Source: Trypanosoma brucei | Lineage: Eukaryota | Direction of reading: 5' to 3' | Assembly (NCBI GenBank): GCA_000002445.1 | Contig: CP000069.1 | Coordinates: 160,001-224,000 of the forward strand | DNA: 64,000 bases | Part shown: piece by piece, positions 19,707 to 50,649 of the stretch | Layout: each line of letters starts with the position of its first letter | Position numbering within the stretch: the stretch's first letter is position 1 | Notes under the pieces: generated by a model | Seen by the model: only the letters and a program-made list of their open reading frames with translations | The model's database searches: none | What the model was told of the DNA's origin: nothing | Position numbers and translations under genes: made by a program

Positions 19707-20657
19707 TCAGCACACAATTGCGAGGGAAAAAAAGACGATGAGTAGACACAATTCACCACCTACACAGATCGTAATGTGCGACAAGGAAGTCAATGTCGTC
19801 TCCGCCTCTCCTTTTGGTTTGGGAGTTGCCGAAGGTTGATCTTGAGAATTTGTAGACTCCTCATCTGAATGCAAACTTTCGTTGATTACTGCTAGCTCCT
19901 CATTGGCAGTGGAGTTTCCATTACCTGGAACGGGATGCGATGGCTGTGGAACTGTAACTTCGCAGAGGGCAGCGAAATAAGTTAGTGACTTGTATCCAGG
20001 TGCCTTACCCCCGGGCTTGTTGCCAGAAACTTCGCCGCCATCAAACCAACCGAACCACTTCGTCACGTTAGTGTACCAACCCATCACGTGCAATTGGCCA
20101 TCCTGAGGATAACTTTGCGCAAAAAACGACGGATAACCACCCAATGCGCCTGAACCACTTTTATAAGTGTACGATCCCCGCCAGAATGCAACGCCGTTGC
20201 CCTCTATTCCCGATGCTTCAAACAGACCACTGTTCCATCGGTAGACGCAATTAAGGGAAGTATCGTAGTCTCCTGCTGTGCAACGAATTCCCGCGTCCTG
20301 TGCCGCACTTGCACTGTAAGTGGCATCCCCTCCAAGGTAACTGTAGATAAATGGGCCATCAGCTACACCCAAGTGGTAGGCAGTGAGGCGTTCGTTAGTT
20401 GCCTGCGAGTGGTCAGTGGCCAGCGTCCCGCCGGCTTCACGGCAGATATGCACTGAGTTACTGTAGTCTACAAGGTAATCACCTCCATGCCAAAACTTTC
20501 GGTTGGGGAAAAGAATATACTCCTTGACATAGGCAGTTGGGTACACCTTACCAAATGCGAAGAGATGTGATGAACCTGAAAGACATTGCAGCAGGGCAGT
20601 GAAGAGAACGACCATCCGTGCGAAGCCGCATGCCGTCATGCTTATCTCAGTGCCCAT
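19707..20657 (-). CDS. secreted or GPI-anchored cysteine-containing protein with a C-type-lectin-like domain signature, copy 1
   Basis: A 316-aa ORF with an N-terminal signal peptide (MVVLFTALLQCLSGSS) and a C-terminal hydrophobic tail (ICVGGELCLLIVFFSLAIVC) after a Ser/Thr/Pro-rich acidic linker. The core shows CTLD-like landmarks: HICREAGGTLATDHSQATNERL (~C...G..LASI.S.EE..FL), WFGWFDGG (~W.W.DG) and a terminal YFAALCEV (~FVCE). Confidence 0.55.
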   Translation of the reverse strand: MGTEISMTACGFARMVVLFTALLQCLSGSSHLFAFGKVYPTAYVKEYILFPNRKFWHGGDYLVDYSNSVHICREAGGTLATDHSQATNERLTAYHLGVADGPFIYSYLGGDATYSASAAQDAGIRCTAGDYDTSLNCVYRWNSGLFEASGIEGNGVAFWRGSYTYKSGSGALGGYPSFFAQSYPQDGQLHVMGWYTNVTKWFGWFDGGEVSGNKPGGKAPGYKSLTYFAALCEVTVPQPSHPVPGNGNSTANEELAVINESLHSDEESTNSQDQPSATPKPKGEAETTLTSLSHITICVGGELCLLIVFFSLAIVC

Positions 20658-21197
20658 TGTTAGTATTACTTGCTTGTCAGTCTATGGGCCGCGCGTGAAA
20701 GAAAACAGGTTAGGAAGAGTAAGCACAAAACAAGGTGAACAAGGAAGATGATCACATCGCAATTGACCTGCATTGTAGAAACACCGCCCCGTTAAAATAC
20801 GCGGAGAGTGATGAAGATATTGATCTGCTACACGAAATAGAACGCTACAAGGGAAAAGCAAAAACAGAGGAAAACACGATGCGCGGAAGCGGCCTCATTC
20901 ACACGTCCAATGGAGCTCTGAACAGGGTGCGCAATTCCGCAATACCCCTGAGGGAGGGGAAATAAATAGGAATAGAGGAACAAATGGTTTTATAACTGAC
21001 ACTTAATAGGCTCTCACTTAGCATCTTAGAGGAAATGGATGTTCATAAAATCGCTCACATAAAAAAAAGATAAAACGAAAATAAAACGATTAGTGGAAGT
21101 TGTTCTACTAGTTGCGTGTTATGGGCCAAACGAGTATCTACCCGTATCTTGTTATGGCTTATATGAGTAACACTGCACAGCCGGTAGGCCGCACAAG

Positions 21198-22148
21198 TCA
21201 GCACACAATTGCGAGGGAAAAAAAGACGATGAGTAGACACAATTCACCACCTACACAGATCGTAATGTGCGACAAGGAAGTCAATGTCGTCTCCGCCTCT
21301 CCTTTTGGTTTGGGAGTTGCCGAAGGTTGATCTTGAGAATTTGTAGACTCCTCATCTGAATGCAAACTTTCGTTGATTACTGCTAGCTCCTCATTGGCAG
21401 TGGAGTTTCCATTACCTGGAACGGGATGCGATGGCTGTGGAACTGTAACTTCGCAGAGGGCAGCGAAATAAGTTAGTGACTTGTATCCAGGTGCCTTACC
21501 CCCGGGCTTGTTGCCAGAAACTTCGCCGCCATCAAACCAACCGAACCACTTCGTCACGTTAGTGTACCAACCCATCACGTGCAATTGGCCATCCTGAGGA
21601 TAACTTTGCGCAAAAAACGACGGATAACCACCCAATGCGCCTGAACCACTTTTATAAGTGTACGATCCCCGCCAGAATGCAACGCCGTTGCCCTCTATTC
21701 CCGATGCTTCAAACAGACCACTGTTCCATCGGTAGACGCAATTAAGGGAAGTATCGTAGTCTCCTGCTGTGCAACGAATTCCCGCGTCCTGTGCCGCACT
21801 TGCACTGTAAGTGGCATCCCCTCCAAGGTAACTGTAGATAAATGGGCCATCAGCTACACCCAAGTGGTAGGCAGTGAGGCGTTCGTTAGTTGCCTGCGAG
21901 TGGTCAGTGGCCAGCGTCCCGCCGGCTTCACGGCAGATATGCACTGAGTTACTGTAGTCTACAAGGTAATCACCTCCATGCCAAAACTTTCGGTTGGGGA
22001 AGAGAATATACTCCTTGACATAGGCAGTTGGGTACACCTTACCAAATGCGAAGAGATGTGATGAACCTGAAAGACATTGCAGCAGGGCAGTGAAGAGAAC
22101 GACCATCCGTGCGAAGCCGCATGCCGTCATGCTTATCTCAGTGCCCAT
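21198..22148 (-). CDS. secreted or GPI-anchored C-type-lectin-like protein, copy 2 (100% identical to copy 1)
   Basis: Identical 316-aa translation at offset 1491. Confidence 0.55.
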   Translation of the reverse strand: MGTEISMTACGFARMVVLFTALLQCLSGSSHLFAFGKVYPTAYVKEYILFPNRKFWHGGDYLVDYSNSVHICREAGGTLATDHSQATNERLTAYHLGVADGPFIYSYLGGDATYSASAAQDAGIRCTAGDYDTSLNCVYRWNSGLFEASGIEGNGVAFWRGSYTYKSGSGALGGYPSFFAQSYPQDGQLHVMGWYTNVTKWFGWFDGGEVSGNKPGGKAPGYKSLTYFAALCEVTVPQPSHPVPGNGNSTANEELAVINESLHSDEESTNSQDQPSATPKPKGEAETTLTSLSHITICVGGELCLLIVFFSLAIVC

Positions 22149-22410
22149 TGTTAGTATTACTTGCTTGTCAGTCTATGGGCCGCGCGTGAAAGAAAACAGG
22201 TTAGGAAGAGTAAGCACAAAACAAGGTGAACAAGGAAGATGATCACATCGCAATTGACCTGCATTGTAGAAACACCGCCCCGTTAAAATACGCGGAGAGT
22301 GATGAAGATATTGATCTGCTACACGAAATAGAACGCTACAAGGGAAAACATAGTTGGAAGGTGAGAGTGGCAGTAAATACTAAGAGCATGGAGAAAAAAC
22401 ACATAAAAAA

Positions 22411-25400
22411 ATATAATGTAAAGGGAAGCATGTAGAGGTTATGCCAAATGTTCAGTTGAGGTTACACACTGCAGCGACGTAGACGCTCCCTCCCGCCACA
22501 ACTCGTCGTAGCTCCTCATCGCACAGTTAAAACGTCAAGGGTTCAGTCTTGAATTACCACAAAATACGGATAAATGAGGTTTGTCCCTATAAAGGAGCGG
22601 CATTTCTGCACTCCCCTCGAGTGTCCAAACAGTGTTGTAAATAACAGAAGGATATTATAGGCTCAGCAATATTAACAGAGTGAACGTGTTACAAAACTCC
22701 CTCACAATACTATAATTAGTATAAGCTGCAATAACTGTGACTGTGAAGGAACTTTGTTATACTGCGAGGCAACGCGGGTTTCAGCACATAACTAAGCTCA
22801 TGCATCGACATCACACTCTGGAGGGAATGGAGGCAATCACATACCTTAAATCCTTACGGCAACACAAATGAGTGAAGGGAAAGAAAGCATGCAACTGGTG
22901 AAACAACATGTAACATCAGCAATGCAGAGGGTGATAAGGGTTGTATATCCGAAGAGAGAGATACAACAGCCCACATAACACCCAACACATACAAACACAC
23001 ATGCAACATAACACTCATTATGAAAAAATATTTAAAGACATCGCTAGCATTAAGTGGATTCAAAAAGAAAAACGTGACGCAGACACACACGGAAACACAG
23101 TTTTGTACCCGAAAGGCTGCGGGATTGGGCGTGAGAGGTGGAATGTTTAAAAAAAATAGTCATGCACTCGCACGCTTAAGGACAGACGTGTTGAAAAAGA
23201 AATGTTTCACCTTATTTTTCTTAAAGCCTCAAATGGCAAGGACAAAAATAAAAAAGAGAGCCCTTAGGGAAAGTACATAGCTAATCCCATTTTGTGATTA
23301 CTCACAGAACAAAAACGTTTTGGTTAAATTAGAAGAAATGTTGAGCCGTCCTGTCTTCCATAAGGGTCGGATTTGGAACAGTAAGAAACCAACCGGCGCT
23401 GACACGGCAAAACACATGCATGTGTTAATTCAGTGTCTTGAAAGACAACGCATGTGTAATCTAACAGAGGGCATGTTCCCTCTTAAGATTAGTATGTGCT
23501 TTAATGCAGAGGCAGCAGCCACCAAAAATAGAATGTAAAAAATGTAATAATAAATAGATGGCAAAAGATAAAAATAGATACAAAAGACAAACCCTACCGA
23601 GACTACGTTAAAATTCACTAACAACTACTACAATCGGTATGCTAATTAACTTTTCCGCCGAGTAAAACTAAGAGATTTGTACGCTTTATGACGTGCAACA
23701 GTACCACTAATGTAACGACGGAAGCGAACACCCAAAGTGGCCTTCTCTGAAATGTGAACCAACGAATGGAACAATTATGATTGAGCCCTCTTCAGTACTC
23801 ACAGAAGCTTCACTGCTTCCACTTTGAGCGCTACGGTCAGCGACACGCCCAACCTTAACTGCAATGCGACGCACCACTTCCTCACAGTAGGCGTCATCCC
23901 ACTCGAATGCAGCTTCACGGGGAAGAGGCACACGCCAACGCTCACAAAGCGACGCCAGAAGATTCCCCCGTTGCGCTGCTTTAAAAGTTCGGAAAACAGA
24001 CTGCAGTGAGTTCAATATCGATTGTGCTGATTCACTCAGCTCCGCACGTGAAGAACTGTGGTCGCTGGTGGAGGTTGTCGTGCCATCCTCGTCTTCATCA
24101 AAGAATTCGCGATCCAGCCGTAATGCAGCAAAGTTGCGGCCAGGCACGGCATTCAACTGGTACATTTCCACATGATCATTCACGCCACGAAGTGCAACAT
24201 CACCAAGTGCAGTGACATCAATTTGCTCACGCTCCTCAGCTGACAGTGACATGTAAACCTCATGCGTTATCAGCACCTGACCACCATTTGCTACACTCTC
24301 TGTCCTTGCTGCCATGTTTGGAGTGCGCCCATAGTAGTCATATCCCTTCGTCACTTCATCGTGTCGGATGTCGCACAACCCGGTGTGGATTCCAACACGT
24401 ACACGCAGGCCATTCCACAAACGACTGTACACTTTAGGGTCCAACCGCGCAGTTGGCGGTGTGTACTTCTCGTCCTCCTCCGCACGCTGCTGCTCAAATT
24501 CCCAGTAGGACTCATCAATCGCATTTGTTCCCCAGTCATGCTGCAAGAAACACAGCTGTAGTTCCTGTGCGAGTTGGACGGCAGCGAAAGGACTCTTACT
24601 CGCTATCATGAACGAATCCCCTACAGTCTTGACTTCGTAGCACTTATACCTCCCAATCAGTGAACGAATCAAATAGTGATGTGTTGCAACGGCAACAGGC
24701 ATCAGATCAGGGTGTGCAGCCCACAACGCAGTGCTGCTCTCAATGTCAGTAGATATTAGTGTCACGGGGTCAGTTGGTTCCTTGGGTGCAAGATTGTTAT
24801 CACGAGCATTCCGGTGTGTTGCTAATATAACAACCACAAGAACCGTAACAAGCGGCACCAACATTACGACGAAGCCAACTGCAATAGCGGCAATTTGCTC
24901 AGTTATCTGTTGGATCCATCTCGGTTCATCATAGGTCACTGACAGTGTGGCAGACGACAGCGCAGAGGACACAAAAGGGTTTAGAACATGTGACATCGAC
25001 CATACAAAAATATGCATCGCACCACAGTTGACAACAGTGCTTCGCCTCAAGTCAAGTTTCGTTCGTACACTTGTCTCCAAACGACCCATACATTGCAGGA
25101 CACTTCCCATTGCGTAAGCGATGGCAGACCCACGTAGTGACAATGGCTTCCACTTCGACTCATTCTGCACGATCTTGCGGAACTCACGTACTGTTTTGGA
25201 CTCCGTGATCTTATCCCTCCGATGTGACAGATTCGTTGCGAATAGCAAGGGGTTAGAAAATGGCTCTTCATGGAAGGCATTCACGAGTTCGCCGTGGATT
25301 GGTGCATCATCGAAGAACAGGACGAAGACGTGCGCATTACGGTGCTTGTTAGGGTGAAAGAGGATTATGGAGATATTATATGGGATAAGACCTACAACCA

Positions 25401-27295
25401 ATACCTCACATGCAGTTGACAGCTTGTCTCTCAAAATAGGACCTTCACCACTCGCAACAAAGAAGCTTAGTGATGTGTTAAAGTTGTCAAGTGTTTTTGC
25501 AACATATTCCTAATTCCTCTCGTATCACCACCACGACACACAATGAAATGCATCCTTCCTGCACCATTTTGTATAATATGCTCAACTATCATAAATAACT
25601 GCTGCTCATTTGTTGGTAACAGGTGGATCACATTCCTTCTGGGGTTACTCGGTTGTGATGTGAGTATTATAGGATCGATGAATGCCATACCCTTCGTCCG
25701 TAGTAACGAATTATCCACGACACCAAGCACAGCAGTTACAACTCGTTTCTCAACATCATTATACAGAGTTGCAGAAGCTTCGTAAAATTTCGAGGATAGT
25801 CAGTGTAAAAAGAAACTATCAGAGACCCAGTTGACCTTTGCCAACAACATGAGGGACACCATCGTATACCATCTATGCAGTACGCAGTGCCTTTGGGTCA
25901 TCGGTTATATTAAACATGACCCCACTCAATGGGCCCTACAACTGTGGCAGGTCTCGATAACAGCGAGATGAACCAAGGGTTAATATAGCTTCCTTCATAG
26001 GGTGCAGATGGAGATCCTTTTCCACCTTCTTCACGCACATCACACTCCCACCTTGGTTACGTAAACACGATACACCCCGCTCTCCCGCCTTATTACGGCA
26101 CTCACCACCAAAGTCACCAACCACAATATTATCAATTGGATAACGACGTTTATTGTACAGTGATTTCATAAATACACCCCTGCTAGTTAGCTATTCGTGA
26201 CAACTCAGTGCCTGTTTCAATACCTCCCCAGCAACCCATCTGTTCAATGTCAGCTCAGCTTCAGCGTCTTGCTCGGTGAAGTTATTTTCGTTAATATCCC
26301 ACCTTGTGCGCTTATAGTTATTACCATTAACCTTTAACAACATAGTCATATCATCTCTGAAACGCCTGACAGCTTTGTATGTGTCACCCTTCGTAATTAG
26401 GTCAGCCCCAGTTATTATTATCTTAGCAGCCACAAACTCGTCTCTACCCAATTTATATGCCCACTTGTTCTTGATGGCGTGTTGGAGTGCAGAGGGTGTA
26501 TGAATAAATATTCGCCTCTTGTCCTGTGGTCATATAATCATTTCATGGGGAATCTCTTCATATCAGGGATTGGAGAACCAAATACAATCATTCCCTGAGG
26601 TCCAGTATCGGCAACCTTATTACACTCCGCACTGAAGCTCCTGTTATCCGATTCCTTATCAAGTTGACTCTTCAATGCAAAAAAAAAAAAATAACAACTA
26701 AACAACTTGCGATTCATCCGTGTTGCCAACTACGCAGCAAGCTTATACTCATCATCACCATAAGAAACATCTTTCAAATACATGAAATCCAGTCGGTGTG
26801 ACCGTAACTGAGTGATAGCATAACGGAAAAGAGCAAGCATCTCAACGGCGAGTGGTGCTTCCAGGAGGTATAAATTGGGATTCCAACTGTGTACCCTACT
26901 GAATCCTGTGAAAGGTAAGAAATCAACTACGCATTCTTTTCATTGAAATATTTGGTTAAGTTGAGAGTATTTTTGTCACCCACAGATTCCAGTATAATAG
27001 CAAACTCATCACCGTAATTGGTTGTACAGATGGCGTATCCAAAGTCATCCAGAGACGGAACATATGCAACTGCCACACTGACACACGGAAGCGACTTCCC
27101 GTTGGTAATAGATGCGTTGAAACCTGCAATAATAGGATCACATACCTTTGCTGAGATCTTGTCACTGTATAACATGTTGCATACCCTTACCCATAATAAT
27201 CCATTTGCAAGCTATACTTCAGCCAGCAGCTGTAGTAACATAGAAAAACACTACGTAAGTGACTACGCCATCTCTAGCATGTAATTCACGCATGG
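22411..27295. repeat. right arm of the large inverted repeat. It contains an inverted partial R spacer at 22411-23150.
   Basis: Reverse complement of 7225-12105. For example 22423-22450 'ggaagcatgtagaggttatgccaaatg' is the reverse complement of 12078-12105. The lectin tandem array abuts it at about 22350-22411. Confidence 0.85.
23707..27176 (-). pseudogene. GRESAG4/ESAG4 adenylate cyclase pseudogene, inverted duplicate of 7340-10809
   Basis: ORF 23707..25434 (575 aa) differs from 9082..10809 at only about 12 residues. The upstream fragment ORFs (25467..25730, 25936..26169, 26191..26451, 26927..27175) mirror the left-arm fragments exactly. Confidence 0.8.
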
Positions 27296-30200
27296 GGTGA
27301 CTGTAGGCGTGAGTCGCACGATGAACGGCGCGTGTCGATTCCCTGAATCCATTTCTTGGTAAAATTTAGGGGCTGCATTTGGATGCAGTGCGATCACACG
27401 AAGTAGCTGCGTTTCCCGTTGAACCAAAGCACATAACTTACATCGACAATCCTTTGTAGCAGTGCGGAGGCCCGCGCTCGGCCATGCCGACCCGCTGAAG
27501 TCGATCTTCGTCGGGGGGGGGGGAGGGGAACGGTTTTTTATTTGCCCTCCACGCTCAACTTTGACAACGTCAAAGGGCGTAGTTGGAGGTGTCGGGACAC
27601 GCCTGGCTTCGCAGAGCGCTTGTTTGCCTTCCAATTGGATACTGAGGACATCCTTGGTGGTGGGGAAGTGCCTCAACTAAGGGCGGAGTGAACGGTTTCT
27701 TGACATTGCTTTTTTCTCATTTTCACGGGGATGCCGCGCCATTCAATCCGTTTGGAGAACCATGTAGATCCTTTCCTCGTGGGGACGCCAACCGGGCAGG
27801 GCGCACGTGCCGGTGCCTCAGTCGCCTTCCTCTGCGGGTTGGCTAATTTAGTAGATGCCCCTTGGGGTTTTGGGAGGTGGTGCTGCGGTGCCACTGGGCG
27901 TGGTGACGCCTTGATCACCCTTGAGGATTGGGAGGGGCAAGTGGTGTGGCGATGGCCGCTTACCCGCGCCGTGGCTGACATTCTTTTAGCTTTCGGGGTT
28001 GCGTTAGCTGCCGCGCGGTGCCAAAAAAGTGCTAAGGGGAGGGATAATGTGGCCTTCAACCTCGCTCGGGGCGTTGGGCGCGTACAGCGCGTTTGGAAGA
28101 AGTGGCTTCCGCCGTCTGGGGTGCCGGTGGCGTGTGCCTCGTGCGGTTGGTTTTTCTCTTCAGGAGATGGGACTGATCAATGCTTGGGGGTTAGAACTTC
28201 TGTCTCCTTGTGTTCGCTTGTGGGGAGCTAGTGGGGCGCAGGCCGCCCGCTAGCAGGAGGTAGCAAAGGTGCGTGGAAGTTCCGGCCACTTTAAAGGATA
28301 TGAAACTGAAGGGGAGATATCGCCTCCAAGGCACCCTAGGGAGTCGCGGTTTAGCAGCACTGTCCCTTGGGGGCTGCTGCCGCATGATCGTGTTGCCGGA
28401 GCCCGCTATTTCGTATCTTCGGGCGCCAGCTGGGGGGGGGGGGGGGCGGCGGGTTTCTCCACTTGGAGACCCCCACCGTGCTCGGGCGCCGTCATTTAAT
28501 CGGCGGTCCCTCGGGAAAGAAAGGGACCTGTATGGGCATTCCGGGTGGGGGGATTTTTTTTTTGTGTGCGCAGGCGCGCTTCAATTGCGTAGTATCAATA
28601 GAAGGATTGAACATCCCCCCTGAAACGAAGTATCAATCGCGTGCTGACACTCGATTCTGTGTTCGTGATACCGGTGTTTGTGCTGAGCGTTGCTTGTACT
28701 GCTTGACTGTGTGGGCCGCACACTGCGGTATGCTTGAGAGGGAAAGAAAAAGAAAGGATATCCTCCACGACGGTTAGAGACTATATGTCAAGGATAAAAG
28801 GAAAAGGGGCAGATATAAAGAGGTATTCAGTTATGCAGTGTGTGTATGTGTGGATCTGTGGTTGCGGGATACTCCACACTTCTTTTGTTTTTTTTATTAC
28901 GAGTGAACACGTTGCTGTGCACGGTGAACGTCCCTCCCACGACCGAAGGATTTTTTAATTCTGATAATGCGGATATCCGTAAAGTTCCGTCCTTTTCTTT
29001 GTGTTACAAGGGGTCGTGTGTCTTTCACTCATGCAGTTTGATTTTATTTTCGTCGACTCCTGGAATTATCTGTGTTATTTATTTTAATTCCGTTCGTGTG
29101 ATTCCGATATACCTCTTTTGGTTGTTTCCTATTAGGTGGTCGGCTACAATGTTAACTTTTCGCTGATGTTTGTGAGTCTTCTGTGCACTTTTCCTATTGG
29201 CCTTTGCAAATGGGTGTTGATCTTCATAGTGCATAGACGGTTTGCGAGGATGTTGGGACCATGCAATCACTTTGGCGGTGCGTCCGTTCTTTTTCTTTTT
29301 GGAGAAAAATATTGCGTACATTTATTCACTTAATTTTGTCGGTGGCCTCTGCTATGTTTTTTGATTGTGCTTGTTTTTCTAGGAGAATCCGCACCTTCTT
29401 TAATTTTGAGGTTGTATAAGCAGTTGTTTTGTAGTATAAGTAAGGAGACATATGCTACAATGTTTTTGTAAACATTATGTTCGGGTACATACGAAATATT
29501 TTACTGCTTCCTTTTTCCGCTGAACTTGGGGTGAAGTTCCTACGTTTTTATTCTGTTTCATTAAGGTAACCCAAGTTCCTTTTCTTTCGTTGCCTTCTCC
29601 CTCTGGACACAACACGGGCGGTCGAATATGACTGCTTATATCAAGGCATCGCGACGGCGTTAGAAAACAAAGGTGACGTGTGTAATAACTTTCGCTTGGC
29701 CGGAGGGTCATGTTTCTGCCTCTTTGTTTTTTGCGTCGTGAAATGGTGACCTGGTTTTTGTGTACCGAGCATGTACTTTTTCATATTATCATATTCCACG
29801 AAGATTTCAAGTATTGTCACATACTTTGCCCGTGGTAGGTGCTACCCAGGCCATGCTTCCAGAGGTAATAATGATAGTTTCAGCGAAGTGTGTTGTCGAT
29901 GATGTTATCGGCGGTTTTGCATAATCGTTTGTCGTGTTTTATCTGTTGTGGCAACCTCGTTAATATACAGTTAGACGTTAATTTACATATTTTGCGGTTC
30001 GGTCATAAGCCATAAGTTTTCTAGAAGTGGGTGTGTTTGTTACCCCTTTTACACTCACTGTTAGAAGATGTTTTACGTGTCTACTACTCGGCTATTGTAT
30101 TTGGCCGCAATATATTCGGGGAGACGGCTTTGATATGGATCTGACTCGTCATGTGTGTATCTGCATGCGTGCATAAAGTGTAGAGGAGGAAAGTGCAGGT

Positions 30201-30662
30201 GCAACATCATTACCTCGCGTTAATAGAAGACGAAGTGAGTATGTGATTTCAGCGGGCGCCAAGTTGATCTTCGGCTCTGCCGGTGACGAGGATAGCTGCA
30301 GGGGCCTTGAAGGAGAACTTAACACAGTCGTGGTAAGTAAGTACGAGAGCAAAGTATGTACAAAACTAGGTTGCCACAGGGGAGAAAGGTGTACACCGCT
30401 GGAGATGGTGTTGGCATGTGCATATGTGCATGTACTGAAGCATTGTCCATATTGTCGGCAATTAAATAATTCTTCCCTCCGACAGATTTAAACACCAAGT
30501 GAAGTATACAGTTTTTCACTGCTGCAACTACACATACGAATTTAGTTTTTTTCTTCGAAGGGACTAACCATACAAGCATTCGAATTTTCAGTAAGAGCGC
30601 AAACTTGTGAATAGGGTTAGGGTTAGGGTTAGGGTACACATAAAAAATAAGTAAATACTCCG
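27296..30662. promoter_or_regulatory. divergent strand-switch region with long G-tracts: candidate RNA pol II transcription start region
   Basis: The - strand genes end at about 27295 and the + strand genes begin at 30663. The interval is unusually GC-rich with homopolymer G runs (27513-27528; G15 at 28432-28446) and a T-run at 28555-28562. There are no protein-like ORFs. Trypanosomatid divergent strand-switch regions are known pol II start zones and are G-tract/GT-rich. Confidence 0.45.
30610..30634 (+). repeat. interstitial telomere-type repeat (TTAGGG)x~4
   Basis: The sequence 'atagggttagggttagggttagggt' is read directly. The G-rich strand runs 5'->3' rightward. It lies 29 bp upstream of the M20 peptidase ATG. 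Confidence 0.8.
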
Positions 30663-32090
30663 ATGCAGGTTGATTGGGGTGCAGTTCATAAATTCATTAC
30701 TGACGAATGGGACAAGACCCTCGTCCCCACCATTTCTGCATACATCGAGGTTCCGAACCAAAGCCCCCACTACGACCAGGAATGGGCAACCAATGGGTTA
30801 ATGCAAAAGGCTATGGATATCATTATTGAGTGGGTCAAAAAACAGCCCATCAAGGGTATGAAATACGAGCTTTTCGAGGAGAAAGGATTAACGCCTTTCC
30901 TCATTGTGGAGATTGAAGGAACTGAGCCATGTGCCAACACACTAATGATGTACGGCCATATGGACAAACAACCCCCTCTTCTTCCGTGGGAGGAGGGACT
31001 CCACCCATATAAGCCAGTGTATCGGGATGGCAGATTATATGGTCGTGGAGGAGCTGACGATGGTTATGCCGTGTTTTCAGCTCTGACCGCAATGGCGGCT
31101 GTGCAAAAGCAAGGCATTCCACACGGGAAAGTCGTTGTTATCATTGAGGCCAGTGAGGAATCTGGGAGTATGCACCTCCCTTTTTACCTCGAGAAATGCA
31201 GGGACCGCATCGGCAACGTCGATCTTCTTATTTGTTTGGACAGTGGGGCGATGAGCTACGATCAACTTTGGCTGACGACAGCTCTACGAGGAGTATGTGG
31301 TGGCATGCTTACAGTGGAAACAATGAAGGAAGGCATGCACAGTGGCCTATCCGGTGGCGTTGTTCCCGATTCCTTTCGTATTGCCCGTATGCTCCTCGAA
31401 CGTATTGAAGATACAAATACCGGTGAAGTAAAAATTATCGAAGCAAACTGTGACATCCCTCAGCATGTTGTGGAGAGTATGCAGTCAATAAGGGCAATTG
31501 CATACAAGGAGCAGTTTCCCCTTCTGTCCGGCGTGTCTACTGAAGTTGATGACACTGTGGAGCTAGCCCTGAGGAATTCTTGGAAACCGTGCTTGACAGT
31601 GGTGGGTGATAACCTCCCTGATGCGGCAACGGCTGGGAATGTCAATCGTGCCAAGACCGTGCTGCGGCTCTCCCTCCGTGTCCCCCCTATTGTGGACGCG
31701 ACGAAGGCCACACTAGCGATGAAAAGAATACTCGAGGCTGATTCCCCATATAACGCCAAAGTAACTTTCACTCCGGATGATGCAGGTGACGGCTGTGCGA
31801 CACCACGGCTAAAGCCATGGCTTGTGGAGGCGCTCAATAAGGGTAGTGAGATGGCTTTTGGTAAGGGGTTCGCATCACAGGGCATGGGTGGGTCCATTCC
31901 TTTTATTGCAATGTTGCTGAAAAAATTTCCGGATGCGCAATTTGTGGTCACCGGCGTTTTGGGACCGAAGAGCAACGCACACGGGCCGAACGAGTTTCTA
32001 CATGTGCCGTTTGCGAAAGGAGTAACTACGTGTGTTGCCCGAATCGTTGCGGACCACTACCATGCAACGCCAAAGATACATAAGCAGTGA
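30663..32090 (+). CDS. M20-family metallopeptidase (CNDP/DUG1-like dipeptidase or carboxypeptidase)
   Basis: A 475-aa ORF. It carries the M20 signature block MMYGHMDKQPPLLPWEEGLHPYKPVYRDGRLYGRGGADDGY (~YGHLDVQP...ERDGKLYGRGSTDDKG) and the downstream EASEESGS metal-ligand region. Confidence 0.75.
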   Translation: MQVDWGAVHKFITDEWDKTLVPTISAYIEVPNQSPHYDQEWATNGLMQKAMDIIIEWVKKQPIKGMKYELFEEKGLTPFLIVEIEGTEPCANTLMMYGHMDKQPPLLPWEEGLHPYKPVYRDGRLYGRGGADDGYAVFSALTAMAAVQKQGIPHGKVVVIIEASEESGSMHLPFYLEKCRDRIGNVDLLICLDSGAMSYDQLWLTTALRGVCGGMLTVETMKEGMHSGLSGGVVPDSFRIARMLLERIEDTNTGEVKIIEANCDIPQHVVESMQSIRAIAYKEQFPLLSGVSTEVDDTVELALRNSWKPCLTVVGDNLPDAATAGNVNRAKTVLRLSLRVPPIVDATKATLAMKRILEADSPYNAKVTFTPDDAGDGCATPRLKPWLVEALNKGSEMAFGKGFASQGMGGSIPFIAMLLKKFPDAQFVVTGVLGPKSNAHGPNEFLHVPFAKGVTTCVARIVADHYHATPKIHKQ

Positions 32091-35000
32091 TCAGCCGACC
32101 ATTGCTTCAAGTTTGCTCCCCTGCATTTACGGTCCTGTTGGTTAAACGTGCAACTTTACTTCTCTGTGGTGGGATAAATGAGTTTGTGGGCTTGAGCATG
32201 TGGGGATTGACGACGTTGGTGCTAATATGTTATTCTGGTTTCTCGGCTACTTGCTTGCATGTGGGAGGGGGGGGGGAGAGATATTCCAGAGGCGGGAAAA
32301 GAAGTGAAGCAGATATGGGATAATGTTTTTATCAATTTACGTTCCCCCTTTCCACTTTGTTTGCCGTCCGACTATTATGTGGAGGCCCAGAAAGATGAAG
32401 AGACTTTCGTTCAGTGCGTTCTAGCTGACGTTTGTCCCTGTGTTTGGTGAATATGTTCCCTGAAGTTATGATTTTGGAGTGTTTTTTCCCCTTTTACCTT
32501 CGACACCCTCTCACAAGTTTAATACATACGCGAGCTCGGACTCAATATACCAGTCGTCCGATTAATTGAACACGAACACCTCGCAATGGGTCCGCCGTTC
32601 CGTTCCGTTTATTTGTTTTCTCTTACTTCGTCTCGAAAGTTATTTTATTAGTGAACAAATCGGTAGATTCGTAAGTAAAATGTCCCGCCGTCCGTACGGC
32701 CGCTATCAGGGTTCTGGCGAAACCCTTAGCCCACCATTTTGATCCGAATGGATCGCAGCCATTGTTGCAGGCATTACGTTGTGCCGTGTGGGCTTTGCCA
32801 CCATCGTCGGGGTGGGGGTGGTGAGCAGCCCGTACGGACGCGTCACACTCAAGATAGCGACGGTAGTTCGGTCGTGGTGGAAGACAGAAAAGCGTCCTTA
32901 TTGAACTCATTTTCGCTGCTGCGTGTCACGAAACATGTGAAATTGTTATACCTTGTTTTGCTATCCGGGCAATGCCTTACGCTCCCGAAGTCGCACTGAT
33001 GTCGCCAACTAAGACAAAGTATAAGTGGGGGCCATTGCTCTCCCCACCTTCGGCAGCTGTGCTCAGTTACATCGGTGCAGCGTACATGTCTCACTCGGCC
33101 AGTTTTTGGTCTCCACGAGGTAACAAGTGAAGCAAAGTGTTTCTAAAACGTTTTCTCACCTTCACGTCTTTCAGATACTTCCTTTCCTTCGCTGCCTCCT
33201 TCTCTGGTTTCATCTGAGGGTGAAGTATCAGCCTGTGGTCGACGCATCCAATCAATAGGCAGGGTTTGCGTGGTTGGTGGGTCAGCACAGCTTAGCGGTA
33301 TGGAAACGGAGGGTTTGCTCCAGCTGGTGTCTATTGGCTTCGTGTGTGGGTCCGCCTGCCGCAATGCGATGTGCTAACTCGGACAGCAAAAACATTTTGC
33401 GGTCGCTGCAGAATGCGTGACACCGAGTGGTAACACGCGACCAGCCGGGAAGTCTATGCAGCGCCAACCCGTGGAACCGAAGTTGATGGAACTCTCACGA
33501 CGAAGAGCTATTGGCAGGGGGCGGGGAGGGAAGGCAATACGTGGAGACAACGGCTTCCTTCGTTCAGATCCGCATGGCAGAATCAATGGAGGGGAGGAAT
33601 CAATTTTGGCGATATAATGGTTGATGAGGTCCTTGTATAGGTGCGCTGCACATGTGCCTCCGCTCCGTAAAACCGTTCCCAGGGTAGATGGGGGGGGGGG
33701 GCTGGTGGTGGGTGGATTTTGCGGTGTCCGATCTTACCCAAGTGTTGGTGGGATAGTTGGACGTTGAGTTTTTTAGCTATTGTCTGTTGCTGGGTAGGTG
33801 TTTGAACGAGCCGCTGCCACTGAGCTGGCTTTGGCTGCTTGCTCCGCCTCGCTCAGAGGGTGAAGACAATCCTCACGGTTGCCCCGCTTTCCAGGCAGCA
33901 GGGTCGAAGTGGTTGCGGTTCTTTTGAGCATCCTACGTGTGTATGTGTTTCTTATGTGTGCGTTGGCGCTGTACGGCACTGAGGGGTTGGATCAATGGCT
34001 TGATTAAGCGCCCACATTGCAAGTCCTTCCCCTCTTTCTCCCAACATTACGAAATCAAGGCCGCGCTACTCAAACTGCAGGTGTCCCTGTTTTTTTGGTT
34101 CGGTTGGTGGGTGACCACATCAACACTTTTTTTTAGCACCGCCGCTTCACCGTGATGCCATATGCCTGCTCTGTCAAACGCCCTTCGGGAAAGAGGTTGT
34201 GCTCTCCGCCTGACTACTTGTTTCCCCACTGCGTTACTGTTGGCCTCCCGTTTGCCTCGGTGTGTGGGTCCCCAGACACAGTCAAACCTGGAGGTATGAC
34301 GGCGCAACGTTATAATGCTTATCAAGGCGTCTCGCACCGTTGGCGCGTCGCCCTTTGGCGTGTTCTGAGGTGTGGCGTCGGCTCAACAGCGGCCAGTGTG
34401 ATTGAGCAAGGTTGACGCGAAACGGTTTCGTAGTTTCCAACCTCTTCATTGAAGGGCCCCGTAGATAGTAACGGCGAGCCGCTCGTCACACAAGCTGTTT
34501 GGTCGGTGCCTTTTGTTGAGCAATGTGAGGGGGAAGCTGATGTTGTAATAAGCAAGTCCTCTGCTGTGGAGTGTGTGGGGCAGCGCCACTCCAACTCTTG
34601 GGTTTGTGAAGAAGTACCACGGGGAGGCCGAAACAGAAGAAACCGATAAATGCCGCACATGTAGCCACGCTTGAGATGTGATATCTAAGTGTTTTTACGT
34701 CCGTGTGCGGTAGGGGGGAGGACCCTGCTTCTGATGTTTGTGCCATCGGACCTCCGCAGACAAGTTTGTGAAGTGCAGAAGTGGCATGACGACAAATGTG
34801 AGAGGACCGCTGCTTCACGTCGGTGTGGCACGCCTTGTTTTCATAGGCAGTGAAGAGGCCCGCGCGTTTTGGCACACGTGGCCTGCGTTAAAATTCGATG
34901 CAAGCAGAGGCGGAGAGAGGGTTTGCAATCAGCAGAAGCTGCCGTCCAGTGGGAAAAGTTATCAATTAACAAAGCGAGGACACAAGCGAGAGAGACTCAG

Positions 35001-35684: not shown

Positions 35685-38261
35685 ATGACACAACCAGATA
35701 TATTCATGGGTGGGAATCCACTTTGTGTGAGATACAATGGCTATCCCATCCACGTGGTCCGTTCTACGGATGGCACCAGCTGGTTCAGTGCAGCGGATAT
35801 TGTAAGGGCTCTCAGCATGTACAGTACAGGGATGGGTGCAGGTGATTGCTGTAAAGATGATAACACACTTTCACCATCCGATGAGTCTGCGGATTTTGCG
35901 AAGCGCTTGTTATTTTCAGTTGACGAGGAGCACAAAAAGCCACTAAAAGATGTGGTCAAGGAGTGTGAGCGGGCATTGTATGGGAGTGCTGGGATGGAGG
36001 CTTTATACGTTGACCTCACCGGGATCCAGACGTTAACACGCGCTACAAGCATGCCGACAGAGGCTGACTATAACGACTTCATGCAACACGGTGAGGCGCT
36101 TAATAAAATCGTTGGGGCCTTGCAAAGAGGCATCCGTGACAGCTGTGCGCAAATGTCCGAAAAGCCTTGGAATGACGGATCAGGCGGCGTCGTAGAGGTC
36201 AATGCAGCTGACTTACAGTCGCTCCTGAAAACGGTGGAAGAAATGAACGGGTACATGTGCAGCATTTTACCCCGCGTTGCTAACAATGAGGCTACTATAA
36301 GAACTGTGAGTGAGCACATGCTCCAACTCCAAAATAAAGTGGATCATGAAATTGAGAAGATCAGAAGGGAATTCAGCCAACACGGGACTGCTTCACTGAC
36401 TGGACGTGATAAGGTAAGTGAAAATGCGGAAAGCGAGCCCCCATGTGGTACAGCGGAGTTGAATATATCAGAGAGTCCTACAGCGGCTTGTAAAACCGTC
36501 AGACTGCTTGACCAGTCGAAGAATGGGGCTTGGCAGCGCCAGGAGCATCCGGTGGATATTATAAGCAGTGAGGAAAGGCTGATGAACAGCTTCAACTTTG
36601 AAGCATGTGGTGCATCTGCTGAAGAGTTTGGAGAAGCTGAGCTCGAACTGATTGCCTATTTCAGGCGTGCACTAAGTCGTCTGGGGCAGCAGGGTAGAAC
36701 ATGTATTAAACTGTTTCCAGTGAAGGACTCTAACAAACACTCTTCCCATTCCGCTGAGCGCGCCACCTATGAGTTGAAAGTAAAGAGAATGTCACTGCAG
36801 TTGAGTGATTTTAAATTCATCAGCATGTGCCCATCCATAGCCAAGCTCCGTTTCAGCGAGTGTCGCGGTGTGTGCGACCTGGAGGTCCTGGCTGAGGCGA
36901 AATCACTCGACGCATTGAGCCTGGATATTGAAGGGGAGGTGAGGCACCTTCATTTTTTGAGCGGACTGCCTTCCCTTAAGACCCTTCAGCTACATTACCA
37001 ACAAATCTCTGATGACGAATTTCGCTGTTTGTGCCTGTTGGAGGGCCTGGAGGAGCTAACTCTGCGTGATGCTTGGAACTTAACGTGTTTGGCGCCGATT
37101 GCAAGCTTGCGGCGGTTACGGGTATTGGATTTGAGCCTCCCACTGGTGGCCCCCAGCGGCTGCGTGCAAGAGGAGTGTAGTTCTGATGGTGATCAAAGTG
37201 CGGATACAAAGTACCCCCATTTAACGGATGTAAGTCCACTTGCAGAGATAATAGCACTAGAAGACTTGAATCTCCAGGGACGAGGAGGTGTAGAGGCAGG
37301 TGTTGATGCACTTGGATCTTTACCGAAGCTCCGTGTGTTGAATCTGAGTGGAACGGGCATAACCGATTTGTGTTTTGGTGGTCTGAGTGAAAGCAAGACC
37401 TTGACGTCACTTGACATTTCTTTCTGTTGGAATTTGACCGACCTAAGCCAACTCGCTCAAGTCGCCACGCTGAAGGAACTAAAGCTTCGGTTGCACAAAG
37501 ATGGAGTACCCTGCGTGGACGGTCTCGATAGCCTTCCGTTACGCACGCTACACTTGGTTCTCCCCCAAAGAATTTGCCAGCATTCGGAGGAATCTTCTAC
37601 TTTGGAGAGTAGCTGTGAGGTTGCACCCACTGTTTCGCTAACAGATGTGTTCCCCCTCGAAGGGATTGAAACGCTTGAAGAGCTGAGTTTGCGGGGTCAG
37701 GGACATTTGAGTCTACAAATGGACGTCCTTTCCTCCTTGCCTCATCTGTGTGTGTTGGATTTAAGTTTCATAAGCATGACAGAACAGTGTCTTGATGTAC
37801 TTGCCACTATACCAGGCCTGGTGAAGCTCGGATTCACTGCTCGTGGGTGCACAGGGAACATGAGCTCTCTCTCTAAGATTACTTCGCTTGAAGAGCTGGA
37901 CGTCCGAAGTTGCTCTAGTGCCGGCGCAATTGTTGATGCAGCTGCCCTGCTGCCTAAGCTGCGTGTTTTCAGTCTGAGTGGTGCCACAATTACTCCAAGG
38001 AGCCTCCAAAGCCTCATCCAGTGCAATAACCTAGTGAAGCTGGATATTTCCTTCTGCAGGAATGTGGAGGGTGGTACGCCATTCCCATTGATGACTACAG
38101 TGGAAGAGTTGAACCTCAAGGGCTGCCAGAGCGTCCTCTGTCTCGGTGTTTTGGCCAACTTCCCTAGTCTGCGGAAACTAAACGTGAAAAACATGTACGT
38201 GAGTTCCGAAGTGTTAAAGGAGTTTCGTGGGCGTAATGTTGTAGTTCGTTACAGATGCTGA
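35685..38261 (+). CDS. leucine-rich-repeat protein with ESAG8-type (cysteine-containing, RI-like) LRRs and an N-terminal KilA-N/Bro-N-like domain; no RING finger
   Basis: An 858-aa ORF. Residues about 10-45 (NPLCVRYNGYPIHVVRSTDGTSWFSAADIVRALSMYS) match the Bro-N/KilA-N core pattern F.F.G..IRVV..DGE.WFVA.DVA.AL. The middle holds a coiled-coil region. The C-terminal half has at least 15 LRRs of the ESAG8 type (LxxLxLSxCxxLTDLSxLAxxxxLxxLxL). Confidence 0.75.
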   Translation: MTQPDIFMGGNPLCVRYNGYPIHVVRSTDGTSWFSAADIVRALSMYSTGMGAGDCCKDDNTLSPSDESADFAKRLLFSVDEEHKKPLKDVVKECERALYGSAGMEALYVDLTGIQTLTRATSMPTEADYNDFMQHGEALNKIVGALQRGIRDSCAQMSEKPWNDGSGGVVEVNAADLQSLLKTVEEMNGYMCSILPRVANNEATIRTVSEHMLQLQNKVDHEIEKIRREFSQHGTASLTGRDKVSENAESEPPCGTAELNISESPTAACKTVRLLDQSKNGAWQRQEHPVDIISSEERLMNSFNFEACGASAEEFGEAELELIAYFRRALSRLGQQGRTCIKLFPVKDSNKHSSHSAERATYELKVKRMSLQLSDFKFISMCPSIAKLRFSECRGVCDLEVLAEAKSLDALSLDIEGEVRHLHFLSGLPSLKTLQLHYQQISDDEFRCLCLLEGLEELTLRDAWNLTCLAPIASLRRLRVLDLSLPLVAPSGCVQEECSSDGDQSADTKYPHLTDVSPLAEIIALEDLNLQGRGGVEAGVDALGSLPKLRVLNLSGTGITDLCFGGLSESKTLTSLDISFCWNLTDLSQLAQVATLKELKLRLHKDGVPCVDGLDSLPLRTLHLVLPQRICQHSEESSTLESSCEVAPTVSLTDVFPLEGIETLEELSLRGQGHLSLQMDVLSSLPHLCVLDLSFISMTEQCLDVLATIPGLVKLGFTARGCTGNMSSLSKITSLEELDVRSCSSAGAIVDAAALLPKLRVFSLSGATITPRSLQSLIQCNNLVKLDISFCRNVEGGTPFPLMTTVEELNLKGCQSVLCLGVLANFPSLRKLNVKNMYVSSEVLKEFRGRNVVVRYRC

Positions 38262-40288
38262 CGAGGGTCCGAAAGTTTTGTATATTCTGAGCGGGTTCTG
38301 GGTGCTGTGTATCTTGTGCCATAACCACAGTTTTCTTAAGGGCACTTCCCACTCGTATATTGCGCCTCTGGTGTGTGGAGACGCCAGTGTGGCGCCGGTT
38401 GTGCTGATATTTTTGGTGCTTCCCCCTTGGGTTTTATGTGTACCGTCGGTAGCATCGATGTGTATGTAAAGGCTGCCCAACACGCTAGGGACACTCACAC
38501 GTGTCAGGCGGTAGGGGTTATATTTGCTGCTCTTCAAAATAACTTAAGCAAATTGGCACCATGAACAGACGGGTAAAGAGAAATATTGCACGCACCGTCC
38601 TTTTTTTGTTTTTGGTTTGACTTGTCTTATCATATTTTACCTTACTTGCCTCCCTTTTTGATCGCTAATGGCGGGTCGCAGACAAAACATTTATTAATTA
38701 TGAATATTTCGGTGTGGTTGTGCAAAATTTAAGCAAGCAGTTATGCAACAGATATTGGGGCCTCTGTGGACCCGTTTTCTTTTTTTTTTTTTCAACCCTA
38801 CCATTGGGTTCCTCCCCCTTTTCGCCTCTCTGATACGCCCACTTCATTCCTCGTTTGATGTACTGGACCACCTTCCCCACGATCAACTGCCTCCGCTTGC
38901 AGGACACCATCGCTCTGAAATATCTCATCTTCGCCACCTTTTGTTCCGTTTAAGGGCAGTATCGGGTCAACCGCTGTTGAAATATAGGTACTGGTGCTTT
39001 GCGTGGTTGGTGGGGAGGGAGGGGGTTTCTATCGATAACATTTGGCAGGCAGAAAACTGGTTTGCATTCCTCCTTGCGAGTGAACTAAAGGCAAGCGGCT
39101 GGTACAGCCTAGAGAATCATGATAGGGTAGTTTCTATACATCCACAACCGCTGTCCCCTAGAGGATCTCCTCTTCTCCCTCTAGAGTTGAGGTATCCATG
39201 TCCCTGAATCGGGTTTGATAACTACGATATTGTGATGTCTCAAAGGAAGGGTCTGAAAGGGCTGCCCGTCATTCACTTGGTTAATGACACGCACGAAATA
39301 CTCATGATTGTTATCAACCCTATCAAATAAATGTTACCCCCAGAAAGCTACATTACCCGTAGTGTGTCTAATGACCACAGCTGTGACGGGGATGCTGGGG
39401 ATTCACAATGTCGTGTGGAGTCCGTAGGTGAATTTTCCGCCCAAAAGTCTCGAGGTGGTGGGACAGGGGTGGAGGGACAAAAAGAGGGAGAGAGAGTTTG
39501 TGTGGCCGTCCTCCTCCATTAACGTGAAATAATATGGGACAGGGAGAGCTTGTCTGTTCTCTTTACAACCAGTTTACTGTGGGAGTCGTGCTCTAAGCTC
39601 GTTGAAAGCTGAGAACGGGCAGCTGTTGGATGCCCACGGGCCTGCAGCCACCAAATTGTGCAACCACGCAAACTCACAGGGATGTTATGACACGACTTGC
39701 CTCGCCTGGGTAGTTGAGTGCTGCACCACACGTAATGGGTACGTTGAAGCAGCTTCCAAGGCGCAGATGCCTGAGTTGCATAGTTGCCATGCGTCTGTCA
39801 CCACAGCAGTCACGCCGACGACTATGCCACCAATTCCACAACAAGGCTCCAAAGCAGCTCCATAATTAGTAATGAAATGTCAGTAGCAAAGAAAACTACG
39901 ACACACATGAAATACATATACGTGTTTGTGTGACACCATTAGCTACCAGCGTGTCGGTTGTCCCTTTCTATCATTTGCTCGCAATTTACAGTGACATCAT
40001 TAACGAGTCGCCTCTCGCTACCTTGACGTGCCTTCATTGCTTTTTAAGCATTGTTTTGGTTTTGTCGGGAACTTGTTATAGTATCCAACTGTCTGGAAGT
40101 GTAATCTTACTGATTTCTATTTTCCCTCTTTTGATATTCTTCCTTAGGACATAAGATTTCACACACGAAAAGTGTCACACATTACCGAAAATATGAGTTG
40201 GCAGGAAGGTGGTGGAAGAGGATGTGTGTACCCTCATGGAAACTGCAGGCGGAACCTTACCGCAAGGAGCCCTGCAAGGCGTTACAGC

Positions 40289-46149: not shown

Positions 46150-47458
<1,309 letters not shown>

Positions 47459-50400: not shown

Positions 50401-50649
50401 CGCTGATTCACCACAAAGTGCTTTTCAGTGCCCCCAAACTGGATTGCCAAACTTCTGACAAGTGTATTGTTCCGAGTATGGTGAGCGGACCCCTTCTCTA
50501 TTATCAATTCTCAAAAACTCTTCGGGAGTCAGGGCCCACGGAACCGAGGGGGCGGATGAGGGAGAGGGGGAAACAACAATTCCGCACCGCGAACAGGCAC
50601 CGCTCCCCTGGACCTCTTCCTCAGATGTGAGGTGCAGTCAGCCTTTGTT

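Follow-up and report, generated by a model that had tools for sequence, protein, structure and literature searches.

Two descriptions of T. brucei Pol II start regions come closest to the locus analysed here. In the analysis of 199 start regions by Wedel et al. (2017; EMBO J, PMC5579346), G10 was the 10-mer most enriched on the coding strand in their 5' fifth (132 vs 17; Dataset EV1), and synthetic GT-rich elements, which are nucleosome-depleted, produced directional transcription and H2A.Z deposition. Kieft et al. (2024; mBio, PMC11796357) dealt with a single divergent strand-switch region, that of the haptoglobin-haemoglobin receptor (HpHbR) cluster, which they studied in strain Lister 427 by run-on, ChIP and J-IP. 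As reported there, Pol II occupies the strand-switch region by ChIP-qPCR, with amplicons that fall at 27377-30204 of the present sequence, RPB9 and H2A.Z ChIP-seq signal is found over it (their Fig S3), and nuclear run-on labelling with and without alpha-amanitin gave signal from both flanking clusters. When Pol II was lost from the region, both clusters were silenced together, reversibly and mono-allelically, and the M20 peptidase gene, Tb427.06.400 in their list, is silenced along with 6.410-6.440. [quoted passage not shown] It also says of the core promoters of Cordon-Obras et al. (2022; Cell Rep) that divergent strand-switch regions contain two of them, facing opposite ways.

The locus studied by Kieft et al. 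and the one presented here are identical, since primers, gene order and gene names agree. The window, that is, the whole stretch of 64,000 nucleotides that was analysed, matches strain TREU927, and a window coordinate plus 160,000 gives the position on T. brucei chromosome 6, the interval 27296-30662 corresponding approximately to chr6:187,296-190,662. All their chromosome 6 run-on fragments 1-14 and qPCR amplicons A-F could be placed on the window; fragments 1-14 span 14486-47458, and fragments 15-17 fall outside it, in the PTU further downstream. At 10 of the 10 SNP positions of their Tables S1A and S1B (minus 160,000) the window shows one of the listed alleles, and the protein of its M20 peptidase gene has the same sequence as TREU927 XP_845163.1. 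The interval separates two diverging clusters, Tb927.6.350-390 on the minus strand and Tb927.6.400-440 on the plus strand, and forms the strand-switch region between them. The leftward cluster has five genes, including a GRESAG4 pseudogene, IGP genes, 6.360 and 6.350. The rightward one also has five, Tb927.6.400-440, with the M20 peptidase first and HpHbR last, the gene order to the right being M20, LRR protein, GRESAG4, HpHbR and EP procyclin. The sequence anatomy of the region (G runs, pseudogene junction, TTAGGG repeat) is not described by Kieft et al., and its features are as follows.

23707-27293, minus strand: GRESAG4 (receptor adenylate cyclase) pseudogene, frame-broken, first unit of the leftward cluster
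27299-28600, plus strand: GC-rich, G-skewed core (G 34%, C 24%, T 25%, A 17%), single-copy in the window
27300-27750, no strand assigned: hypervariable left edge, 0.45 kb
27377-27462, 27612-27698, 28201-28281 and 30087-30204: ChIP amplicons B, C, D and E of Kieft et al. (2024), by primer mapping
27513-27528, plus strand: G11 followed by AGGGG, G4-type motif
28432-28453, plus strand: G15 (28432-28446) followed by CGGCGGG, G4-type motif
28547-28563, plus strand: G6-A-T10
28601-30560, plus strand: T-rich (G+T-rich) non-coding spacer, 42% GC, 34% T
30561-30662, plus strand: 5'UTR of the M20 peptidase mRNA, 102 nt, from contig L010
30612-30635, plus strand: interstitial telomere-type repeat, perfect (TTAGGG)4, inside the M20 5'UTR
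30663-32090, plus strand: peptidase M20 gene, Tb927.6.400, first of the rightward HpHbR cluster (Pfam PF01546)
32267-32276, plus strand: coding-strand G10, outside the interval and downstream of the M20 gene, member of the same G-run cluster
33690-33701, plus strand: G12 on the coding strand, outside the interval, within the G4-type motif 33682-33701

The flip of transcription polarity proposed in the original prediction is present, with open reading frames on the minus strand at the left side and on the plus strand at the right side, and the cumulative G+T skew forms a V-shaped minimum at 27292. In a scan of the window, runs of at least eight A were located at 13078-26691 and runs of at least eight T from 28554 on. 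G+T makes up 59% of the plus strand across 27299-30611 vs 46% to the left, and these 3.3 kb are G+T-rich throughout, the G-rich part coming first and the T-rich part second. No other 1.3 kb of the window is as GC-rich as the first part, 27299-28600 (58.1% GC vs 47.0% for the whole window); the remainder, 28601-30611, is T-rich with 42.3% GC. The strongly elevated GC that had been assigned to all 3.4 kb is therefore right for 27299-28600 but not for the rest, about 60% of its length. The idea that the GC-rich block is a CpG island was rejected, because its CpG observed/expected ratio (0.93) is about equal to that of the window (0.85). Both parts were covered by the published assays: run-on fragments 4-7 tile 27274-30682, the GC-rich block being covered by fragments 4 and 5 and by amplicons B, C and D, and the spacer by fragments 5-7 and amplicon E.

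The two long G runs that had been pointed out, G11 at 27513-27523 and G15 at 28432-28446, are both found on the plus strand, but they are the only two of the interval, so that to call it studded with them is an overstatement; the T run, given as 28555-28562, is actually a T10 at 28554-28563 with G6-A directly before it. All long G and T runs of the interval lie on the plus strand, which is the coding strand of the rightward cluster. The 64 kb hold six distinct runs of at least ten G, far more than chance would give: 10-mer matches, overlapping ones included, number 15, and dinucleotide shuffles lead one to expect 0.05. The G12 at 33690-33701 is situated between the M20 and LRR-protein genes, in 3.6 kb that are poor in ORFs. 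Within 10 kb no minus-strand G run is available to the leftward cluster, the nearest being the C11 at 17239. The coding-strand 10-mers of Wedel et al. (2017) match the interval 25 times on the plus strand vs 0 on the minus strand, and the richest bin of the window is 28001-29000. The proposed G-quadruplex potential holds at the level of motifs: with four runs of at least three G and loops of up to 7 nt as the criterion, the interval contains motifs at 27513-27528, 28432-28453 and 30614-30634, all on the plus strand, and the minus strand contains none in the whole 64-kb window. A single R-loop-forming stretch is predicted, at 27781-27951 on the plus strand, and none on the minus strand.

No credible gene was found in the interval, as had been anticipated. 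A structural RNA or tRNA gene was rejected, since ARAGORN found no tRNA in the interval and Rfam gave no match there at gathering thresholds, nor at E ≤ 1. A hidden protein gene or decayed mobile element was likewise rejected: Pfam had no match on ten ORFs, six of which lie in the block and the spacer, and the 166-aa ORF at 27731-28231, although called by two annotation projects, carries the GeneDB label 'unlikely' and has a single relative, in T. b. gambiense, annotated 'hypothetical protein, unlikely'. This ORF has no exact copy elsewhere on record and no protein relative outside T. brucei among 5.8 billion proteins. Sensitive self-BLAST gave nothing above chance as another copy of the block in the window, and TRF on the region reported G-run and short chance arrays only, which rejects a dispersed or tandem repeat.

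At the left, the pseudogene lies in a 4.9-kb inverted duplicate, 22413-27298, which is a copy of 7221-12100. The homology between the duplicates begins 2-5 nt upstream of the pseudogene ATG (27293), and thus the GC-rich block adjoins the pseudogene start codon. A link of the 4.9-kb inverted repeat to siRNA could not be made, as it is not one of the seven siRNA-producing inverted repeats in Tschudi 2012. At the right, the spacer ends with a polypyrimidine tract (30541-30556) followed by the trans-splice acceptor AG (30559-30560), and the RNA-derived contig L010 starts with TCTGTACTATATTG, the 3' end of the spliced leader, fused to window position 30561. This spliced-leader junction shows that the first rightward mRNA is trans-spliced at 30561.

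The resulting 5'UTR holds the (TTAGGG)4 repeat, which had passed unmentioned in the original prediction and has the GC-rich block at a distance of 2 kb and amplicon E at about 400 bp. Its four copies are found in the window, T. equiperdum OVI and T. b. gambiense DAL972, and three copies in T. b. equiperdum IVM-t1 and in Logan RNA contigs.

Comparison of strains revealed further variation. The left edge differs by about 9% substitution divergence from the DAL972/IVM-t1 haplotype, while divergence is about 2% leftward and about 0.3% rightward of it. The Lister 427 primers of Kieft et al. are mismatched to the window at six positions in amplicons B-D, within the hypervariable left edge, and these primer sequences suggest a third haplotype or more. 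The G11 is an 18-bp indel polymorphism (27513-27530) that includes an AGGGGAA tail; it is present in the window and OVI and absent from DAL972 and IVM-t1. The run at 28432 has 15 G in the window, 12 in OVI and 11 in both DAL972 and IVM-t1, a run of at least 11 being retained in four of the four strains compared. Since two of the three other strains lack the G11 and the G15 varies from 11 to 15, the exact tracts are not required. In T. vivax the M20 orthologue is inside a gene cluster with a different gene context, and the strand-switch region is therefore not alignable beyond the T. brucei group.

The interval is, with high confidence, the shared bidirectional Pol II transcription start region of a small divergent strand-switch region of chromosome 6. 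Its flanks diverge, G and T runs occupy the coding strand of the rightward cluster, no gene lies inside and the first gene is trans-spliced; the start-region reading originally proposed is supported by the identity of the locus, by the published Pol II, H2A.Z and run-on data and by the G/T signature of the type described by Wedel et al. Pol II initiates here in both directions, to the right into Tb927.6.400-440 and to the left into the opposing five-gene cluster. The rigid oligo(dG)/oligo(dT) tracts, together with the GT-rich composition, would disfavour canonical nucleosomes and favour H2A.Z chromatin, and would thereby provide the rightward cluster with a promoter that is dispersed and biased in direction. 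Because the block adjoins the pseudogene ATG and there is no minus-strand G/T-run zone, leftward initiation would have to start inside the same 1.3-kb block, and both directions starting in one block would account for there being a single Pol II peak and for the joint silencing of the two clusters. As no minus-strand G/T signature is found near the leftward start, the GT-rich model alone fails to explain leftward initiation. The function of the individual G runs at the locus is putative. Start regions of this type are characterised by Pol II and by H2A.Z accompanied by H2B.V, H4K10ac and BDF3, and of these Pol II and H2A.Z are published for the locus.

The region could be the promoter and its long G runs be slippage-prone by-products that are inessential, with initiation set by short sequence-specific core promoters elsewhere in the strand-switch region, one per direction, as in Cordon-Obras et al. 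(2022). The presence or absence of the G11 with its tail as an 18-bp unit, the range of 11 to 15 in the other run among four strains and the lack of a G run proper to the leftward cluster point in that direction, whereas the approximately 8-fold coding-strand enrichment of G10 at the 5' ends of 199 start regions and the sufficiency of synthetic G/T-run elements for directional transcription and H2A.Z deposition (PMC5579346) argue against it. Every strain compared, moreover, keeps at least 11 G at 28432, and on balance this alternative is regarded as possible but doubtful.

Mapped replication origins of T. brucei coincide with transcription-unit boundaries, and many strand-switch regions double as origins. 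That general knowledge, and the suitability that nucleosome-poor G/T-run sequence would have for ORC loading, speak for a region that doubles as a DNA replication origin (ORC1/CDC6 site); on the other side, no sequence feature is, to our knowledge, diagnostic of a trypanosome origin, and such a double role is considered rather unlikely. It is less likely still that the G-rich block, together with the (TTAGGG)4, serves besides or instead of a promoter as a silencer or nucleation site that recruits base J synthesis or telomere-binding factors and makes the region unusually prone to heritable silencing. The gain of J by the silenced promoter and the telomeric location of about half of base J (PMC11796357), with a perfect (TTAGGG)4 nearby and G4 motifs confined to one strand, would fit such a site, but J is very low here in wild type, its removal by DMOG does not reactivate the clusters, and four repeats are a very short array. 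The original remark on base J stands accordingly for the silenced state, in which J is reported at this promoter, and not as constitutive J in wild type. Least probable of all is that the GC-rich block is the relic of a decayed gene or of an inserted or mobile segment, placed by accident at a duplication breakpoint, with a composition inherited rather than functional. The block does start exactly where the inverted duplicate ends, 2-5 nt from the pseudogene ATG, with a sharp step in divergence, and two annotation projects called the 166-aa ORF; against this, no ORF has a Pfam match, no protein relative is found beyond T. brucei among the 5.8 billion proteins, the block has neither a second copy in the window nor a repeat structure, GeneDB labels the ORF 'unlikely', and promoter function has been demonstrated for the locus (PMC11796357).

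With the interval taken as a bidirectional Pol II start region, the feature is already known, both the locus and the class of G/T-run start regions having been published, and as a discovery it adds little, coding-strand G/T runs at divergent strand-switch regions being textbook T. brucei Pol II start regions. New here are the G11 strain polymorphism, the hypervariable edge at the ATG of the inverted-duplicated GRESAG4 pseudogene and the (TTAGGG)4 in the first 5'UTR. There is a slim chance that the edge with its present or absent G11, the two initiations in one 1.3-kb block at the pseudogene ATG and the 5'UTR repeat together bring about the heritable mono-allelic silencing that is so far unique to this promoter. 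The haplotype of the promoter might, in addition, be one reason why T. b. gambiense expresses HpHbR at a low level. The receptor for human trypanolytic factor, HpHbR, is under the control of this locus, which is, according to Kieft et al. (2024, PMC11796357), the first case in which Pol II initiation of a polycistronic unit is controlled epigenetically and mono-allelically. The haplotype differences would permit allele-specific ChIP or J mapping, and the one-sided GT signature, the polymorphic G runs, the hypervariable edge, the pseudogene junction and the interstitial telomere repeat offer sequence handles for allele-specific or deletion work.

The likeness to the GT-rich dispersed Pol II promoters of Wedel et al. 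(2017, and Siegel 2009 as cited there) lies in the coding-strand G/T runs at the 5' end; as in those start regions, G exceeds C and T exceeds A on the coding strand, there is no canonical motif and the directionality agrees. The supplements of Wedel et al. hold no start-region coordinates for chromosome 6. The locus departs from their model in that the signature serves the rightward direction only; in addition, its strand-switch region is of unusually small size and the clusters on either side are very short. Beyond trypanosomes, the region differs from mammalian CpG-island promoters in its undistinctive CpG observed/expected ratio and in the polycistronic, trans-spliced transcripts of T. brucei, where, moreover, R-loop signal did not track positive GC skew. 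It resembles them in being GC-rich with a G-skewed non-template strand, in dispersed initiation and in H2A.Z-type chromatin, and the predicted R-loop stretch and three G4 motifs, all on the plus strand, recall the R-loop- and G4-prone nature of those promoters.

The interval 27296-30662 is a Pol II entry site for both flanking gene clusters, and its sequence carries a G/T-run signature on one strand. On their coding strand, T. brucei Pol II start regions contain 10-mers consisting of long runs of G or T, mostly in the 5' fifth (Wedel et al. 2017, PMC5579346); the top 10-mer of Dataset EV1 in that study, GGGGGGGGGG, is counted 132 times as coding versus 17 as non-coding, and synthetic GT-rich elements gave directional transcription and H2A.Z deposition and were nucleosome-depleted. 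A scan of the window with Wedel's 157 10-mers gave 25 matches on the plus strand of the interval and none on the minus strand, the 28001-29000 bin being the richest of the window. G11 (27513-27523) and G15 (28432-28446) lie on the plus strand as originally predicted; the T-run proposed at 28555-28562 also exists, but is a T10 at 28554-28563, immediately 3' of G6-A. Window-wide, six distinct runs of at least ten G make 15 overlapping 10-mer matches against 0.05 expected, and the coding strand has further runs downstream (G10 at 32267, G12 at 33690). Elsewhere, a plus-strand G10 (14377-14386) lies just within the convergent switch, where that strand is non-coding, and C11 at 17239-17249 reads as G11 on the leftward cluster's coding strand, 10 kb away from where that cluster starts.

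The gene order helps to identify the locus.

Gene order on the plus strand from 30.6 kb (Pfam assignments)
30663-32090, plus strand, peptidase M20
35685-38261, plus strand, LRR protein
40172-43930, plus strand, GRESAG4 receptor adenylate cyclase
46178-47458, plus strand, haptoglobin-haemoglobin receptor HpHbR
51009-51392, plus strand, EP procyclin, with GAACCT (Glu-Pro) repeats

T. b. brucei TREU927 XP_845163.1 and the M20 protein have the same sequence, and at the DNA level the window shares 99.6% identity with a T. equiperdum OVI contig and 98.3% with chromosome 6 of T. b. gambiense DAL972. Adding 160,000 to window coordinates gives the chromosome 6 coordinates of Kieft et al. 2024 (PMC11796357), with the HpHbR ATG at 46247 (206,247) and that of Tb427.6.360 at 16896 (176,896); the interval is therefore chr6:187,296-190,662. 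At 10 of 10 SNP positions in Kieft Table S1A/B the window base is one of the two listed alleles.

Primers from that study map directly onto the interval.

Run-on fragments and ChIP amplicons of Kieft et al. 2024 (primer mapping)
27274-28183, run-on fragment 4
28144-29033, run-on fragment 5
28994-29883, run-on fragment 6
29844-30682, run-on fragment 7
27377-27462, ChIP amplicon B
27612-27698, ChIP amplicon C
28201-28281, ChIP amplicon D
30087-30204, ChIP amplicon E

In that paper (PMC11796357), the locus is named 'the divergent SSR of the HpHbR transcription unit', ChIP-seq gives a single RPB9 peak with H2A.Z, and run-on shows both flanking clusters transcribed, with labelling in the presence and absence of alpha-amanitin. 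In TLF-resistant cells Pol II and transcription of all ten genes are lost jointly, and the silencing is reversible and mono-allelic. The reading as a Pol II start region is therefore supported by results at this very locus, in addition to the G/T-run signature. The base J association foreseen for the G-runs needs qualifying: according to the same study, J is very low here in wild type and rises on promoter silencing, and it is dispensable for maintaining silencing.

Composition and polarity agree with the original prediction, save for the extent of the GC elevation. ORFs lie on the minus strand to the left and on the plus strand to the right, the flip being sharp, and the cumulative G+T skew bottoms out at 27292. 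A-runs of at least 8 nt are found from 13078 to 26691, and at 1713 (a duplicated segment) and 48119; T-runs of at least 8 nt are found from 28554 onward, and also in the leftmost plus-strand cluster, up to 13705. High GC, proposed for the whole interval, holds for 27299-28600 (58.1% against a window mean of 47.0%; no other 1.3 kb of the window is richer in GC) but not for 28601-30611, which is T-rich (42.3% GC). Plus-strand G+T is 59% and 58% in these two parts, and 46% in the 4.9 kb leftward. The expected G-quadruplex potential is present at motif level, with three motifs on the plus strand and none on the minus strand in 64 kb; together with the one predicted R-loop-forming stretch (27781-27951), these motifs would be compatible with non-template-strand structure.

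The left edge, 27298, is the exact end of a 4.9-kb inverted duplicate, whose arms (22413-27298 and 7221-12100, 98.7% identity) lie 10.3 kb apart on either side of the convergent strand-switch at ~12.9 kb, each carrying one frame-broken GRESAG4 pseudogene. The arms are homologous from a point 2-5 nt ahead of the pseudogene ATG; therefore the GC-rich block borders directly on the start codon of the leftward cluster's first unit. Tschudi et al. 2012 list seven siRNA-producing inverted repeats, and this one does not figure there. Divergence from gambiense is ~2% left of 27250, ~9% in 27250-27750 and ~0.3% to the right; the ~9% separates the window/OVI haplotype from that of DAL972 and T. b. equiperdum IVM-t1, and the primers for Lister 427 point to a third haplotype here, a mosaic. 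This stretch is either mutation- or conversion-prone, or simply unconstrained. Patches of 5-10% divergence from the DAL972/IVM-t1 side (L006/L008) also occur at 24000-24750, in the cyclase catalytic-domain part of the pseudogene; these suggest gene conversion from paralogues, the segments 5003-5724, 9703-10424 and 42845-43845 being 90-94% identical.

At the right edge, a Logan RNA-derived contig (L010, run ERR7929157) starts with TCTGTACTATATTG, which we take to be the 3' end of the T. brucei spliced leader, joined to position 30561. Over its first 7 nt this sequence overlaps Kieft's SL primer. From the junction, the trans-splice acceptor AG lies at 30559-30560, preceded by a polypyrimidine tract, and the M20 5'UTR measures 102 nt. 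Inside this 5'UTR, 27 bp upstream of the ATG, lies a perfect interstitial telomere-type (TTAGGG)4 (30612-30635), with four copies in the window, OVI and DAL972 and three in IVM-t1 and the RNA-derived contigs. In another Logan contig (L009, ERR7929163), 300 nt of unrelated sequence (1-300, poly-T first) join the 5'UTR just before the repeats, probably an assembly chimera through them. The closest T. vivax M20 peptidase (L007, SOPI01000560.1, 10001-11425; 77% identical) sits within a same-strand cluster beside unrelated neighbours (adh_short, methyltransferase), and a T. brucei paralogue (P0007) is 72% identical; therefore the M20 gene, Tb927.6.400, may be a lineage-specific relocated copy.

Rigid oligo(dG)/oligo(dT) tracts and GT-rich composition would exclude canonical nucleosomes and favour H2A.Z chromatin, and the resulting initiation would be dispersed and biased rightward. 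The minus strand lacks a G/T-run zone (the closest run is the C11 at 17239) and the pseudogene ATG touches the block; therefore leftward transcripts must start within the same 1.3 kb, which fits the one Pol II peak of Kieft et al. (PMC11796357) and the obligatory silencing of the two clusters together. It is possible, if rather doubtful, that the G-runs are by-products and that sequence-specific core promoters do the work, a proposal compatible with Pol II entry here. Among the four T. brucei-group sequences alignable across the region, G11 is a presence/absence indel (18 bp with AGGGGAA, missing in DAL972 and IVM-t1), and G15 varies from 11 to 15 (G12 in OVI, G11 in DAL972 and IVM-t1), which argues against a strict need for the runs. 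What these alignments show to be kept is not the exact tracts but the composition, or one long run at the least.

A decayed-gene or mobile-element origin of the GC-rich block finds no support. As predicted, no gene emerged in the interval: tRNA searches, Rfam even at E<=1 and Pfam on its ORFs gave no match, and its longest ORF (27731-28231, 166 aa) has one relative among 5.8 billion proteins, a gambiense copy annotated 'hypothetical protein, unlikely'. The block has no second copy within the window and no internal repeat. A silencer nucleated by the telomere repeat or base J is speculative, and the low wild-type J reported by Kieft et al. (PMC11796357) speaks against it. The interval is an improbable candidate for doubling as a replication origin.

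Other duplications occur in the window. A 2-kb direct repeat joins 1-2050 and 11367-13415 (99.2% identity). The IGP (DUF5075) gene unit is duplicated in tandem (19096-20857 and 20587-22348, 99.9%), which explains why the IGP 'multicopy' genes are apparently unaffected in Kieft RNA-seq. A 7.2-kb tandem duplication (49379-56593 and 56798-64000, 99.7%) carries in each copy an EP procyclin gene (51009-51392), a 69-bp x 2 repeat (52360-52508) and ORFs of 208 aa and 457 aa (VSG_B-domain), probably procyclin-associated genes.

Kieft et al. 2024 (PMC11796357) did not describe the sequence details given here. The kind of feature is ordinary and already characterised, the individual locus is already published in that study, and its promoter serves as the model system for epigenetic control of Pol II in trypanosomes.
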